Part shown: piece after piece, positions 1,578 to 64,000 of the stretch
How the letters are laid out: the number at the start of each line of letters is the position of its first letter
How positions within the stretch are numbered: the first letter of the stretch is position 1
Origin: Ostreococcus lucimarinus
Lineage: Eukaryota
NCBI GenBank assembly: GCA_000092065.1
Contig: CP000590.1
Length of the DNA stretch: 64,000 nt
Reading direction: 5' to 3' (one strand)
Made by a program: the position numbers and the translations under genes
Notes under the pieces: model-generated
Databases searched by the model: none
Told to the model about the DNA's origin: nothing
What the model saw: the letters and a program-made list of their open reading frames with translations, nothing else

Positions 1578-3065
1578 ATGGCGCCGGCGCGCGACGCGGC
1601 GACGGCGTCGACGAGCGCGGCCGACGGCGCGTTCGTCGCGTTTCTGTGCGCGCTCGCGCCGCGCGAGCTGGACGCGCTGTACGCGTCGTCGCCGTGGAGC
1701 GCGCTCGCGGTGCTGCGCGCGTGCGATTCGATCGCGAAACAAATCATCCTGCGCCTGGCGTACGTCGACGACGGCGCGGACGCGCGCGAGTGCGCGAAGT
1801 GGTGCGGCGACGGCGCGAGCGATGCGCGCGCGCTGGAGCGCGCGATGGCGCGGTTGGCGCGGTTGAGGGTGACGACGGCGCTGGGCGAGGGCGAAGACGC
1901 GCGCGTCGTCGCGAACGAGGCGTTCGCGAATAATCTGCGACGCGCGCTCGAGCGAGGATTCGTGAATTTGGACGATGGCGACGGGGCAGACGCGCGGGAG
2001 GACGCGGGCGTGGCGGCCAAGGTGCCGGATCGAGCGACGCTGAACGCGTACGCGAAGGCGAAGTGGGAAGACTTGCTGCTCACGCTCACGGGGGCGTCGA
2101 ACGCGTTCTCGAGGCCGGGGGCCAAGGTGAAGGGACGATTGGACGCGCAGGCGCTGTTTCGAGCCGCGGGGCTGACGACGGCGACGACGGCGGCGCTGAA
2201 GAAGGGCGGACAGAAGCGGTTGAAGAACGCGGGCGTCACCGCGGAGGGATTCGCGTTTTTGTTGCAGACGGCGCAAGAGCAAATATGGGTGCTGTTGACG
2301 CAGTACATACGCGATTCGCAGAAGACGTCGGCGACGAGCGCGATCAGTTTCTTGCTCAGGCTGACGTTTCAGGAACCGGGGCGCGCGTACGCGATGACGG
2401 GGGTGCTGAGCGACACGGAGCAAGACGTCGTGCTCGATTTGACGCATCTCGGGTTGCTGTACACGTTTGAGGTGAAGAAAAAGTTCTACTACGTCCCCAC
2501 GCTCCTCGCCAGTGGCTTGTCCGGCGGATTCACCGGGGATGACGGCGATACCAAGGCGGCGGCGGCGGCGGCGGAAGGACACATCATAGTCGAGACGAAT
2601 TATCGCGTGTACGCGTACACGTCCAGCGCCGTGGAGATGGAGATTTTGCGGCTGTTCACGCGCGCGGATTATCGCTTGCCCAACTTGTACGTCGGTATGT
2701 TGACGCGCGAGAGCGTGCAAAACGCACTTCGCGCGGGTGTGGACGCAGAACAGATCGTGGGGTACATTCGCGCGCACGCGCACAAGCAAGTTCGCCGAAA
2801 AAAGCCGAGTGTACCGAGCACGGTGTGCGACCAAATTCGTCTTTGGGCGCGCGACATGGAACGCATGGAAGCAGAGGAATGCGTGCTGTACTGCGATTTC
2901 CCGCAGGCCGGTACTTTTTACGGCGCCGTCGTGAGCGAGGCGGAAAAACGAGGCGCGCTGTTGTGGCGAGACGACGCGTCGAGGCGGTTGACTGTCCGCG
3001 CGTCGGCGCACGACGAGATGAAAGCCGTCGTCGGCGCGCTGAAGCAAAAGTTAGACGCGGTGTAA
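1578..3065 (+). CDS. TFIIH subunit p52 / Tfb2 (GTF2H4 family)
   Basis: N-terminal [42 protein letters not shown] and the C-terminal [35 protein letters not shown]...[27 protein letters not shown] motif are typical of p52/Tfb2. The 822..1577 part of the ORF is a low-complexity extension, so the start is taken at MAPARD (1578). Confidence 0.7.
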
Positions 3066-3103: not shown

Positions 3104-4372
3104 TCACGGCGGGATCGCGATGCGCGCTTGTAACGGAAGGTGGTCGCTCGGAAATCCAAACGTCGGCAATCCGACGTCGCTCGGGATTTCGCTCTCGTCC
3201 GGTAGCTTGGCCACGCTCACCACTTTGCTTCCTCGATGGGCCGAGTAGAGGATGTAATCGATCGTGTGTTTGACTTCTCCGGTCTTGAACAACCCGGTGC
3301 GCGTCTTCCACGTCGAAAATCTGTTTGAGTTTTTATCGCCGAGGGCCGCGCTCATGTCCTCGTACGCGTTGCGCATGCCGCGTCCGCGCAAGTGCACCAC
3401 GCACGCCTCGTTGGGCGTCGCGTTCAAATCTCCGGCGATGATGATTTGGACTTTATCCACGTCCGCGCACAAACTCGTGGCGAACGCGTTCAAGTGTCGG
3501 CACAACTCTTTCGTTTGCTCCAGTCGAGTGATGATGCCGTCGACGGTTTTCGCCGACTCGAGATGGGTGGTGACGACGACGATTTCTTGGAGATCCTCTC
3601 CCGAGAACACGGGCTTGGCGTTGCCGCGAATGAGCGTACCGATCGCGTTGCGGATTCCAGACTCGCTTCGAGGATCCTTCTTCAACCGAAACCTCGCCAT
3701 TAACGTCTTCCCGGCGTTGAGCGCCGGGTCGTCCTTGCGCGCGCGCGGCGTCCCCGGCGCGTGCGACGACAACAGCTCGAGTTTGTCAGTTTTGTAAAAG
3801 ATGCACACGCCATCGCACGGCGCGCCGAATTTACGACAAGGCGACCACTGATCTTCCTTGTACAACCCCGCGTACCCGAGTTTCTTCAGCTCGGGCTCGA
3901 AGAAATCGTAGTAGTGATCGCACTCTTGCATGCAAATGACGTCCGGCGCCGTCGTCGAATCATTCGACGTGATCGCTCGAAGCAAATCCTTCGACCGTTT
4001 CGTCCAATTCAAATCATACATTTCCTCGTTCGCCTCGGCGTCGTCCTCGCCGTAGTACGCGCTCGCGAACGCGTCGTTCAGCGCCAACGCGTCGGCGAGC
4101 GCGTTGTACTGGCACACCTGAATCGTCCTCGCGCCCGACGTCGACGTCGTCATCGACGCGTCGTCCCGGTTCGGGTCGTACACGTACCTCGACGCGTCGT
4201 CGTCCGTTTCGCTCGACGCCTCGCGCGCGCGCCGTCGCGCGTCGTCGTCGTCGTCACCGGTCTTTTCGTCGTCACCGGTCGTCGCGGGCGCGTCGACGCG
4301 CGTCGCGCGCGCGTCGTCGGCGTCGTCGCGCGCGCCGTTCGCGGCGGCGCCGTTCGCGGTCTCGGCGAACAT
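3104..4372 (-). CDS. Endonuclease/exonuclease/phosphatase family protein (CCR4/nocturnin-like deadenylase)
   Basis: Motifs ICMQECDHYYDFFEPELKKLGY, IIAGDLNATPNE and GFPSDHLPL match the EEP fold. The ORF track extends to 4648, but that extension runs through a tRNA gene, so the start is taken at MFAETANG (4372). Confidence 0.6.
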   Translation of the reverse strand: MFAETANGAAANGARDDADDARATRVDAPATTGDDEKTGDDDDDARRRAREASSETDDDASRYVYDPNRDDASMTTSTSGARTIQVCQYNALADALALNDAFASAYYGEDDAEANEEMYDLNWTKRSKDLLRAITSNDSTTAPDVICMQECDHYYDFFEPELKKLGYAGLYKEDQWSPCRKFGAPCDGVCIFYKTDKLELLSSHAPGTPRARKDDPALNAGKTLMARFRLKKDPRSESGIRNAIGTLIRGNAKPVFSGEDLQEIVVVTTHLESAKTVDGIITRLEQTKELCRHLNAFATSLCADVDKVQIIIAGDLNATPNEACVVHLRGRGMRNAYEDMSAALGDKNSNRFSTWKTRTGLFKTGEVKHTIDYILYSAHRGSKVVSVAKLPDESEIPSDVGLPTFGFPSDHLPLQARIAIPP

Positions 4373-4516
4373 CGCGCGCGTCGACGCGAACTCGCGATCG
4401 GCGCGACGCGCGGCGCGGTGTGGCGCGCGCACGGATCGGCGATTCGGCGATTCGACGCGCGCGAACGATGGGCGACAGGCGCGGGCAAAAAGAGCGCGAC
4501 ACGACAAAAAGAAACG

Positions 4517-4663
4517 AGGTCCTACCTGGATTCGAACCAGAGTCGCTGGATTACTGCGTGCGCAATCCGAGGGCGAGAGCGCGCCGTTCGACCGGCGCTC
4601 GCGTATGGACACTTTGCGTGTGAATTCAAAGTCCAGAGTGATAACCAACTACACTATAAGACC
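4517..4663 (-). tRNA. tRNA-Gln (anticodon UUG) with a 74-nt intron (exon 1 4626..4663, intron 4552..4625, exon 2 4517..4551)
   Basis: Minus strand reads GGTCTTATAGTGTAGTTGGTTATCACTCTGGACTTTGA | 74-nt intron | ATCCAGCGACTCTGGTTCGAATCCAGGTAGGACCT. The acceptor stem GGTCTTA/TAGGACC pairs with one G-U. The D-arm is GTGT-AGTTGGTTA-TCAC, the anticodon loop CTTTGAA, the T-arm TCTGG-TTCGAAT-CCAGG. The spliced product is 73 nt and nearly identical in layout to eukaryotic tRNA-Gln-TTG. The intron sits at the canonical position 37/38. Confidence 0.7.
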
Positions 4664-4790: not shown

Positions 4791-5111
4791 TCACAGCGCG
4801 AGGTCCGCGAGCGCCTCCGCGACGGCGCCGTCGCTCGAGACCTCGCACGACGCGCGCTGGATCTCGGACAGGAGAATCATGTTGATCGTGCGCTGCGGCG
4901 CGGTGGCCTCGGAACCGTCGTCCGCGATCGCGGCGTCGAGCGAGGCGTACTCGCGCGCGTCGGAGACGACGATGTTCCTCTGCTTGTCGACGCACCGAAG
5001 GGTGCCGACGAAGCAGCGCCCGTCGCGCGTGGTGGTGCGTATCGTCGCTCCGATGTAGTTTTCACGAAACGAGGACGAAGACGGGGACGAGGACGCCGGT
5101 GGAATCATCAC
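4791..5111 (-). CDS. Sm-like (LSm) domain protein, NAA38/LSMD1-like
   Basis: FRENYIGATIRTTTRDGRCFVGTLRCVDKQRNIVVSDAREY fits the Sm fold and resembles the NAA38 core (DGRxxxGxxxCxDxxxNxxLxxAxEY). Confidence 0.5.
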   Translation of the reverse strand: MMIPPASSSPSSSSFRENYIGATIRTTTRDGRCFVGTLRCVDKQRNIVVSDAREYASLDAAIADDGSEATAPQRTINMILLSEIQRASCEVSSDGAVAEALADLAL

Positions 5112-17262: not shown

Positions 17263-17663
17263 CGCGAATCAGATCGCTGATCGCGAAAAAGCGATCAATC
17301 CAATCGCGCGATCGATGGATGAATCGACGCCGTCGTCGTTCGTCGCGATCGACCGAATCCGGCGTTCGCGACGAAGCGCGCGCGCGATGAAGAGCCGCAC
17401 CGACGCCCGAAGTCGCGCGCCGAGCGCGTCGCGGTCGCGTCGCGCTTCTGTGACGCGCGAACGCCGCGTCGGATCGTCGCGCGCGCGATCGCTTTTTCGC
17501 GAAAAAGCGCCTCGAGCGGCGCGATCGACGCGTCCGACGCCCGCGTCGATCGATCGCGCGGTCGATCGATCGATCGCGCGATCGTCGCGCGGTCGATCGC
17601 GCGATGGTTTCGCGATCGATCGATCGCGCGCGCGGCGCGCGGGCGCGAGGACGCGACGCGCGG
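17263..17663. promoter_or_regulatory. Bidirectional promoter region (ApaG <- -> GOSR1) rich in GATCGATCG palindromic repeats
   Basis: cgatcgatcgcgcggtcgatcgatcgatcgcgcgatcg...cgatcgatcgatcgcgcgcg. Multiple overlapping GATC/CGATCG palindromes between two divergent start codons. Confidence 0.4.
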
Positions 17664-17766
17664 ATGGCGACGACGGCGACGACGCGGGCGTGGGAGGATC
17701 TGCGCAAGGATGCGCGACGGACGGAGAGCGCGATAGAGCGCGAGCTCGGGGAGCTGAGCGCGCTCG
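17664..17766 (+). CDS. Golgi SNAP receptor complex member 1 (GOS1/GOSR1 Qb-SNARE), exon 1
   Basis: MATTATTRAWEDLRKDARRTESAIERELGELSAL matches the GOSR1 N-terminus (MAAGTSSYWEDLRKQARQLENEL...). The exon ends in phase 1 at a GTGCGC donor at 17767. Confidence 0.6.
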
Positions 17767-30582: not shown

Positions 30583-31790
<1,208 letters not shown>

Positions 31791-31878
31791 GCATCGATCG
31801 CGCGACGACGCGACGACGCGACGACGCGACGACGCGACGACGCGACGCGCGAACGCGCGAACGCGCGAACGCGCGACG

Positions 31879-32790
31879 ATGTCGCGACGCGACGACGACG
31901 ATCGCGATCGACGCGACGCGCGCGAACGCGCGACGTCGCGCGAACGCGATCGAGACGACGGACGACGACGGGACGGCGGCGACGGCGCGCGATTCGGATC
32001 GAACGGCGGCGACGGCGAGCGACGGGACGAACGACGCGCGCGCGATGAGGACGAACGAGGACGAGGCGAACGACGGGATGGCGATAGGTTCGGGCGACGG
32101 GACGAGCGCGAGCGCGATCGAGGCGGGGGAGGCGGACGGGGGGGAGGGGAACGCTTCGACCCGGACGCGGATTGGAGGTGCGCGGAGTGTAATAATTCGA
32201 ATTTTTCGTGGCGGAAGAGCTGTAAGCGATGCGGGGCTGGGAAATCGAAGGAATTGAAAGAGCGCGAGCGCGCGGCGCAGGCTGGGTGGTTGTTGGATGG
32301 GTTGGAGGACACGACGAATCGAATCTTTATTAAAGGTTTCGACGCCGCGAGCACGAGCGAGGACGATTTGCGAGAGGTGTTCTCGGGGATCGGGATCATC
32401 TCCAGGGTGCGGCAGCGCACGGGATTCCCAGATCAATGGCCGTATGCGGTGCGCATATACCTGGATGAACGAGGACAAAAGAAGGACGAGGCGGTGATTA
32501 CGTACGACGACCCGCACGCCGCGCAGTCGGCGCCGAGCTTTTACGACGGGTACGAGTTGAACGGGAAGAAGCTCCACGTATCCATCGCGCAAAGTAAGCC
32601 GAAATCTGCGCCACCACCGTCTTCGGGTGGTGGTGGTGGTGGCGGCGGTGGCGGCTACGGCGGCGGCGGCTACGGCGGCGGCGGTGGACGTGGCTACGGC
32701 GGCGGTGGACGCTCGTACGGGGGTGACCGACGCGACGATCGAGGCGGATATCGCGACGATAGAGGTGGATATCGCTCGCGGCCGTACTAA
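31879..32790 (+). CDS. RanBP2-type zinc finger + RRM + RGG/GGY RNA-binding protein (FET/TAF15-like)
   Basis: An RD/RE-dipeptide N-terminus, then ZnF_RanBP2 DWRCAECNNSNFSWRKSCKRCGAGK, an RRM (RIFIKGFDAASTSEDDLREVFSGIGII...KKLHVSIAQSK) and a C-terminal GGGGYGGGG/RGG tail. Only the 3' part of ORF 30628..32790 is used; its 5' part is antisense to ADK. Confidence 0.65.
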   Translation: MSRRDDDDRDRRDARERATSRERDRDDGRRRDGGDGARFGSNGGDGERRDERRARDEDERGRGERRDGDRFGRRDERERDRGGGGGRGGGERFDPDADWRCAECNNSNFSWRKSCKRCGAGKSKELKERERAAQAGWLLDGLEDTTNRIFIKGFDAASTSEDDLREVFSGIGIISRVRQRTGFPDQWPYAVRIYLDERGQKKDEAVITYDDPHAAQSAPSFYDGYELNGKKLHVSIAQSKPKSAPPPSSGGGGGGGGGGYGGGGYGGGGGRGYGGGGRSYGGDRRDDRGGYRDDRGGYRSRPY

Positions 32791-63754: not shown

Positions 63755-64000
63755 GCTAGGGTTTAGGGTTTTAGGGTTTAGGGTTTAGGGTTTAGGGTTT
63801 AGGGTTTAGGGTTTAGGGTTTAGGGTTTAGGGTTTAGGGTTTAGGGTTTAGGGTTTAGGGTTTAGGGTTTAGGGTTTAGGGTTTAGGGTTTAGGGTTTAG
63901 GGTTTAGGGTTTAGGGTTTAGGGTTTAGGGTTTAGGGTTTAGGGTTTAGGGTTTAGGGTTTAGGGTTTAGGGTTTAGGGTTTAGGGTTTAGGGTTTAGGG
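63755..64000 (+). repeat. Telomere: (TTTAGGG)n array, G-rich strand 5'->3' toward the window end
   Basis: About 35 uninterrupted TTTAGGG units (plant/green-algal telomere repeat) with one TTTTAGGG variant at the inner edge. This orientation marks a chromosome right end. Confidence 0.95.

Follow-up and report, generated by a model that had tools for sequence, protein, structure and literature searches.

Genomic context of the tRNA gene

We analyzed a 64-kb window of Ostreococcus lucimarinus DNA (the whole stretch considered in this study, with a G+C content of 62%) and searched it with the Rfam covariance models. On the minus strand a tRNA gene was found at 4517..4663. The tRNA model RF00005 aligns to 4663..4517 over model positions 1-71 of 71 with 47.7 bits, which exceeds the gathering score of 29 that defines membership in the family; the E-value is 4.2e-7 for the 64-kb window and 2e-9 when only the local 301 nt are searched. 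The alignment leaves an insertion of 76 nt in the anticodon loop unaligned. RF00005 is the sole Rfam family above its threshold in the window, and a permissive scan (E<=1) returned only sub-threshold noise beyond the tRNA, with no half-tRNA matches that would hint at permuted genes. The tRNA gene lies in a spacer of 418 nt between a gene for an LSM protein and a nocturnin-like gene, and the locus is composed as follows:

3104..4372, minus strand: coding sequence of a nocturnin-like endonuclease/exonuclease/phosphatase (422 aa, PF03372 (EEP), start ATG at 4372), downstream of the tRNA
4517..4551, minus strand: tRNA-Gln(UUG) exon 2, 35 nt, with A38, the 3' strand of the anticodon stem, a 4-nt variable region, the T arm, the 3' strand of the acceptor stem and the discriminator U (Rfam, reading, ARAGORN)
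4552..4625, minus strand: intron, 74 nt, at the canonical position 37/38 (Rfam, ARAGORN, reading)
4626..4663, minus strand: tRNA-Gln(UUG) exon 1, 38 nt, with the 5' strand of the acceptor stem, the D arm, the 5' strand of the anticodon stem and the loop up to A37 (RF00005 alignment, sequence reading, ARAGORN on the joined exons)
4627..4629, minus strand: anticodon UUG, within exon 1
4791..5108, minus strand: LSM/Sm-like protein gene (105 aa), upstream of the tRNA, 100% identical to XP_001420210.1 / ABO98503.1

An open reading frame of 514 aa (3104..4648) overruns the tRNA, and a preliminary description of the locus had regarded its N-terminus as an artefact. The extension 4373..4648 is indeed a spurious 5' part of this frame: gene callers on 82 contigs report the 422-aa product from the ATG at 4372, and in the alignment to L009 (a sister lineage with about 97-98% identity in coding DNA) the part from this ATG onward is clean and coding-like, and non-triplet indels occur upstream of it. 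The same description had guessed at an origin in the Mamiellophyceae, and this proved right, since the protein identical to the LSM gene product (XP_001420210.1) belongs to O. lucimarinus CCE9901.

Three repeat regions were observed elsewhere in the window. About 35 perfect copies of TAGGGTT, a plant-type telomere repeat (TTTAGGG)n, occupy 63757..64000 with the G-rich strand running 5' to 3' towards the window end, and the window therefore represents the outermost 64 kb of a nuclear chromosome. At 31719..32078 a perfect 13-nt tandem repeat (ACGGATCAAAAAC, 5.4 copies) is followed by ~280 nt of GC-rich tandem repeats of 8, 18, 49 and 53 nt. A palindromic tandem array of the CGCGCGATCGAT type at 17534..17664 attracts a number of Rfam hairpin matches (miRNA/sRNA) below threshold, almost certainly artefacts of low complexity.

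Identity of the tRNA and position of the intron

Read on the minus strand, 4517..4663 consists of GGTCTTATAGTGTAGTTGGTTATCACTCTGGACTTTGA, 74 nt and ATCCAGCGACTCTGGTTCGAATCCAGGTAGGACCT. Joining the exons at 37/38 yields a 73-nt cloverleaf that ARAGORN identifies as tRNA-Gln(UUG), with an acceptor stem of 7 bp and a T stem of 5 bp, each including one G-U pair, an anticodon stem of 5 bp and U as discriminator; CCA is absent from the encoded 3' end of exon 2. After splicing, the anticodon UUG stands in a 7-nt loop on a Gln-type body, in line with both the ARAGORN result on the joined exons and the Gln(UUG) orthologues. The division into 38, 74 and 35 nt, including the coordinates, had been proposed in the preliminary description and is borne out by the Rfam alignment and by direct reading. 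Its view of a textbook tRNA-Gln(UUG) is correct for the cloverleaf, the acceptor stem and the discriminator but not for the D stem, which has three Watson-Crick pairs and a U13:U22 mismatch instead of four pairs.

To place the intron we compared the locus with orthologues, which were fetched via the neighbouring nocturnin-like protein (PF03372) as anchor; the region GT2-LSM-[tRNA]-nocturnin-Tfb2 is found in related lineages. Among the compared Ostreococcus lineages, which are about 6-30% diverged at the protein level, the syntenic tRNA-Gln(UUG) was observed in four architectures:

Intronless, anticodon loop CTTTGAA: L013, L014, L016, L017 and L020-L022 at the locus, and L019 nearby
42- or 44-nt intron: L015 (42 nt; 2857..2971, minus strand) and L023 (44 nt, homologous to the intron of L015; minus strand)
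71- to 74-nt intron: O. lucimarinus (74 nt) and L009 (71 nt)
Circularly permuted, with the junction at 37/38: L011 (about 2754..2835, minus strand) and L012 (same position)

The exons of the window align to the intronless genes with the insertion directly after CTTTGA (CTTTGA/A, with the slash at the junction), that is, one nucleotide 3' of the anticodon, and the gene is therefore a tRNA-Gln(UUG) with a canonical 37/38 intron. The insertion had previously been placed exactly at this position; the comparison with orthologues confirms the placement, although the window sequence alone, with A/A at both junctions, permits 38/39 as well and gives the same product either way. Within this ambiguity the boundaries are those listed above. 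The intact CUUUGAA loop kept by the intronless orthologues in congeners likewise agrees with the earlier assignment to a nuclear tRNA-Gln(UUG).

With default settings ARAGORN reports no tRNA at the locus because its intron search is off. When the intron search (-i) is used, it returns a tRNA-Lys(ttt) with a 74-nt intron at 36-37, for the window (4517..4663) as well as for L009 (2285..2429). The borders in this call are displaced by two bases relative to 37/38, and the gene and the length of 74 nt are unchanged. Taken at face value, the locus would encode a tRNA-Lys(UUU) interrupted by a 74-nt intron at 36/37, a non-canonical position, and besides the agreement of the two calls it speaks for this assignment that the alternative joined sequence folds as a cloverleaf too. 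We rejected it on orthology and on the type of the tRNA body and find it hardly credible, as the Lys(UUU) label arises from the A/A and the GA/TA repeats at the borders and ARAGORN itself correctly calls Gln for L015. The body is of the Gln type, all intronless orthologues at the locus carry the anticodon UUG, as do all related virus-borne tRNAs with an identical anticodon arm, and CACTCTGGACTTTGAATCCAGCGA fits eukaryotic tRNA-Gln(UUG). In addition, a discriminator U is typical of eukaryotic tRNA-Gln and not of tRNA-Lys, and the eukaryotic tRNA splicing endonuclease measures a fixed distance from the tRNA body, cleaving at 37/38. For annotation the locus calls for caution, as the gene is missed by default ARAGORN, labelled Lys(UUU) once introns are searched for, and overrun by the naive 514-aa reading frame.

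Transcription and splicing signals

The gene has the full set of RNA polymerase III (Pol III) signals, namely an internal A box and B box followed by a T run, with an unusually long spacing of the boxes. The following elements were found by direct reading, the A box in comparison with the established consensus TRGCNNAGTGG:

4645..4656, minus strand: Pol III A-box-like TAGTGTAGTTGG (tRNA positions 8-19)
4528..4538, minus strand: Pol III B box GGTTCGAATCC, a perfect match to GGTTCGANTCC
4506..4514, minus strand: Pol III terminator TTT-C-TTTTT (TTTCTTTTT), starting 3 nt past the discriminator, with T5 at 4506..4510
4487..4491, minus strand: second T5 run

Owing to the intron, the distance from the A box to the B box is ~106 nt, compared to a usual spacing of 30-60 nt. 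In L009, where the 3' flank is otherwise unalignable, T runs occur again at the site of the terminator.

At its 3' end the intron reads ...CAGUA/A, so that G(-3) and A(-4) are able to pair with C32 and U33, leaving a 3-nt bulge U(-2)A(-1)A38 around the 3' cut. The pair C32:G(-3), which closes this bulge, corresponds to the anticodon-intron pair between nucleotide 32 and intron position -3. All four independent disrupted forms contain A(-4)G(-3)U(-2)N(-1)/A38: the window and L009, L015, L023, and the permuted gene of L011, where it lies in the leader. The presence of this motif in unrelated introns as well as in a permuted leader supports a real splice signal.

The preliminary description had raised the possibility of a bulge-helix-bulge at the exon-intron junctions and of unconventional processing. 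We found no strict form of the former and no sign of the latter. The strict archaeal hBHBh' motif is absent from the junctions, where the central helix would consist of C-G, U-A, a U:C mismatch and U:G, and no outer helix forms between intron positions +2.. and -7.., either by reading or in the constrained fold. In a permuted gene the 3' half would precede the 5' half on one strand; here the order is 5' half, intron, 3' half, so that the gene is neither permuted nor split, and its 3' site has the standard anticodon-intron pair. When the 147-nt precursor is folded without constraints, the minimum-free-energy structure differs from a cloverleaf and has a z-score of only -2.0 against shuffled sequences. 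Constraints were needed to obtain a cloverleaf of the precursor, and imposing the anticodon-intron pairs raises the free energy by 3.6 kcal/mol. A free fold other than a cloverleaf is common among long-intron precursors; it is not decisive and carries no information on the structure of the splice sites.

Judged from its eukaryotic Pol III signals and its anticodon-intron arrangement, the gene is probably processed in the conventional way. RNA polymerase III would transcribe it from the internal A and B boxes and stop at the T5 run, and the pre-tRNA would fold into a cloverleaf from whose anticodon loop the 74-nt intron protrudes. The tRNA splicing endonuclease would then cut at 37/38, measuring from the mature domain and using the C32:G(-3) pair together with the 3-nt bulge U(-2)A(-1)A38 at the 3' site. 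Finally, tRNA ligase would join the two halves, and CCA would be added afterwards.

Conservation of the gene

Nine independent metagenome contigs (L001-L008 and L010) carry the gene and its intron at 100% identity, which rules out an assembly artefact. Compared with L009, the exons are identical at 73 of 73 positions, while the intron of L009 is 71 nt long and differs by three substitutions and a 3-nt deletion, all located within the 3' third. Identical exons, a drifting intron and an unalignable 3' flank form the pattern expected for a gene under selection with a loosely constrained intron.

It is very unlikely that the locus represents a dead or dying gene, namely a tRNA-Gln disabled by a 74-bp anticodon-loop insertion that is not removed. 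Such a view could appeal to the uninterrupted version carried by close relatives, to a precursor that does not adopt the cloverleaf spontaneously and to the missing strict BHB motif. However, it would have to explain why the exons are perfectly kept in comparison to L009 while the intron and the flanks diverge, why the insertion sits exactly at the single position handled by the eukaryotic splicing machinery, why the 3' splice motif AGUN/A is common to three other independent disrupted forms, and why the B box and the terminator are intact and the gene is present in every metagenome contig of the species. Moreover, the genus has very few tRNA genes, many of them with long introns (PMC3673656, PMC13578239). 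PMC3673656 gives a total of only 44 tRNA genes for O. lucimarinus, 4 of which are permuted, and from this total we infer that the gene of the window is probably the sole decoder of CAA in this species.

Taken together, 4517..4663 is almost certainly a real, working glutamine tRNA gene of O. lucimarinus. Considered as a whole, our observations are best explained by a functional nuclear tRNA-Gln(UUG) gene whose 74-nt intron would be near-neutral and conventionally removed, and we place high confidence in this explanation.

Content and structure of the intron

Constrained ViennaRNA folds of the intron contain one defined structure:

4581..4598, minus strand: GC hairpin, GCGCCG-GUCGAA-CGGCGC, 6 bp

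A GC hairpin within the intron had been noted before; it is present, although longer than originally described (6 bp with a GUCGAA loop), and beyond a 4-nt bulge a further stem, GCGA/UCGC, can prolong it. Both stems are the same in L009, where substitutions fall in the bulge and further 3', leaving no covariation to test. The intron has numerous suboptimal folds of nearly equal energy, and only the GC hairpin is claimed here as a defined structure. The intron also contains CAAAG, the complement of CUUUG in the anticodon loop.

Introns can have functions of their own: archaeal tRNA-Trp introns encode C/D RNAs, and in eukaryotes Psi35 of tRNA-Tyr is an intron-dependent modification (PMC3531208). 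For the present intron a function as a small RNA, as a guide for intron-dependent modification or as a regulator of maturation appears quite improbable. The stable GC hairpin of 6-10 bp, which is the same in L009, and the first 45 nt, which are identical between the window and L009, would fit such a function, as would the known intron-dependent modification of other eukaryotic tRNAs. On the other hand, an Rfam search of the 301-nt locus at E<=10 returned the tRNA only and no family for the intron, and by reading we found no C/D or H/ACA boxes (UGAUGA/CUGA, ACA); the intron thus shows neither the boxes nor the small-RNA family match of a guide-RNA intron of the archaeal tRNA-Trp type. Overall, the intron has diverged from that of L009 by about 4-8%, to a similar extent as the upstream spacer, and congeners are intronless or carry an unrelated intron of 42-44 nt. 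A search for further copies with blastn-short in the window and all fetched loci gave only trivial GC-rich 11-13-mers. The intron is most likely a near-neutral passenger without a function of its own.

Two further candidates were dropped. The idea of a repeated or mobile element was given up after blastn-short gave no second copy in the window or the fetched loci. A 3-nt AAT at the intron borders, considered as a target-site duplication, is not long enough to be meaningful and does not occur in L015.

The orthologous locus in related lineages

The permuted gene of L011 consists of the 3' half ATCCTTCGCCTCAGGTTCGATTCCTGGCGGGAGCT, a spacer of 10 nt and the 5' half GCTCCTGTGGTGTAATCGGTAACACTAAGGACTTTGA; the spacer reads cgtattatac in L011 and cgtagtatac in L012. 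The joined L011 halves form a perfect Gln(UUG) cloverleaf. Neither Rfam nor ARAGORN found the permuted gene in L011 or L012. For L018, the sister of the permuted lineage, the sequence ends 70 nt upstream of the EEP gene and the tRNA site is not covered.

Intron presence and absence can be compared at close range between L014 (2834..2906, minus strand) and L020-L022 on the one hand and their sisters L015 and L023 on the other. At 94% protein identity, and with an orthologous upstream flank, the two groups differ by the precise absence or presence of an intron at 37/38. The difference is accompanied by a compensatory change in the acceptor stem from A7-U66 to G7-C66.

In a neighbour-joining tree of the concatenated nocturnin (EEP) and Tfb2 proteins (798 columns), all disrupted forms of the tRNA gene fall on one side of a split supported by 98%. 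Rooting with distant EEP homologues gave a root support of only 25-34%, and with a root this weak gain and loss of the intron are not polarised. We give an even chance to the reading that the locus forms a series of four states of tRNA-Gln(UUG) within Ostreococcus, i.e. intronless, with an intron of 42-44 nt, with an intron of 71-74 nt, and permuted.

One might go further and regard the long intron and the permuted L011 gene as stages of one process, which would be compatible with our preferred explanation of a functional gene with a conventionally removed intron. Two routes are conceivable: tandem duplication of an intron-containing gene would yield a permuted gene, or a permuted gene would be resealed and its former trailer and leader would become a long intron. 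A permuted tRNA-Gln(UUG) with its junction at 37/38 does lie in the orthologous spacer of L011 and L012, the disrupted forms all share one side of the 98%-supported EEP and Tfb2 split, and published models propose such a link (PMC3978253, Figure 5). Weaker evidence comes from ATCCTT, located 18 nt downstream of the permuted 5' half in L011, for which the chance probability is about 2%. Nevertheless, we consider a common process unlikely. No significant similarity (p 0.098-0.77) emerged from Smith-Waterman alignments, with 2000 shuffles, among the intron of the window, that of L015 (42 nt) and the L011 leader and trailer; moreover, the genes lie on opposite strands, and the tree, with its root support of 25-34%, does not give the direction of change.

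The hexamer ATCCTT of L011 (about 2730..2735, minus strand) repeats the six bases with which the 3' half begins. It might have remained from an outer 3' half after a tandem duplication, or it could be due to chance; beyond it, the L011 sequence has no more similarity to the 3' half.

A motif TACG..GAGC, which by eye seemed to be shared among the sequences compared, was dropped after the non-significant Smith-Waterman result. A prasinovirus tRNA-Gln(UUG) as source or copy of the gene gained no support either: 42 viral contigs have the anticodon arm in common, and the best of them is identical at only 63 of 73 positions.

The surroundings of the gene vary as well. The orientation of the tRNA and LSM genes relative to the nocturnin gene differs among L001, L011-L017, L019 and L020, and in L019 the tRNA is found on the opposite side of LSM with an extra gene of 397 aa in between. 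From these differences between lineages the LSM-tRNA-nocturnin spacer can be considered rearrangement-prone.

Comparison with known tRNA introns and permuted genes

The genome of O. lucimarinus was published in 2007, and its tRNA set has been catalogued in the meantime. Long canonical (37/38) introns in nuclear tRNA genes of Ostreococcus tauri were reportedly described by Maruyama et al. in 2010 (cited after PMC13578239; see also PlantRNA, PMC3531208). The gene of the window resembles those of O. tauri in genus, in the 37/38 position, in the length class of the intron (~64 versus 74 nt) and in being part of a compact genome with about 44-48 tRNA genes; it differs in being the Gln(UUG) gene of O. 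lucimarinus. With canonical eukaryotic introns such as those of yeast it shares the position 37/38, the pair between nucleotide 32 and intron position -3, the 3-nt bulge at the 3' site, the complementarity to the anticodon and the internal Pol III promoters. Yeast tRNA introns have lengths of 14-60 nt, the longest example being tRNA-Ile(UAU) with 60 nt, and an intron as long as the present one is not known from yeast or human tRNA genes, with the wide A-to-B box distance of ~106 nt as a second difference. In archaea, BHB introns and split tRNAs involve a homologous endonuclease family and likewise introns in the anticodon loop; in contrast to these, the gene of the window is without a strict hBHBh' motif, a non-canonical position, trans-splicing and an intron-encoded C/D RNA.

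The preliminary description had called the intron unusually long, which is correct with respect to eukaryotes at large. Within Ostreococcus a length of 74 nt is normal and the intron an ordinary feature: PMC13578239 and PMC3531208 describe long canonical tRNA introns (~64 nt, PMC13578239) and many intron-containing tRNA families in this genus. The long intron is already known in kind and very probably also as an individual instance.

The permuted tRNA genes of Ostreococcus, Micromonas and Cyanidioschyzon merolae (PMC3978253, Table 1) are similar to the gene of the window in lineage and in the junction at 37/38 (type II), and the orthologous locus of L011 and L012 itself carries a permuted Gln(UUG); unlike all of these, the gene of the window is collinear. 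That table has 19 permuted genes of green algae but no permuted Gln(UUG); the only Gln entry in it is Gln(CUG) of C. merolae.

By itself, the intron described here is of little weight, as it adds one more long canonical intron to a genus known for them. The orthologous series of several states, including a permuted Gln(UUG), is the sole part that may be of interest to specialists in tRNA evolution. Gain and loss of tRNA introns and the origin of permuted genes are open questions that are usually argued from distant comparisons, and one orthologous gene with all states inside one genus would make them approachable with population and clade-level genomes and straightforward RNA assays. If the reading of the locus as such a series is true, Ostreococcus would provide a natural series, open to dating, in which a tRNA intron is gained or lost and a gene permuted at a single orthologous site. 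This series would include a permuted tRNA-Gln(UUG) outside the published green-algal list (PMC3978253), and the difference between L014 and L015 would be among the most recent events of tRNA intron turnover available to study.
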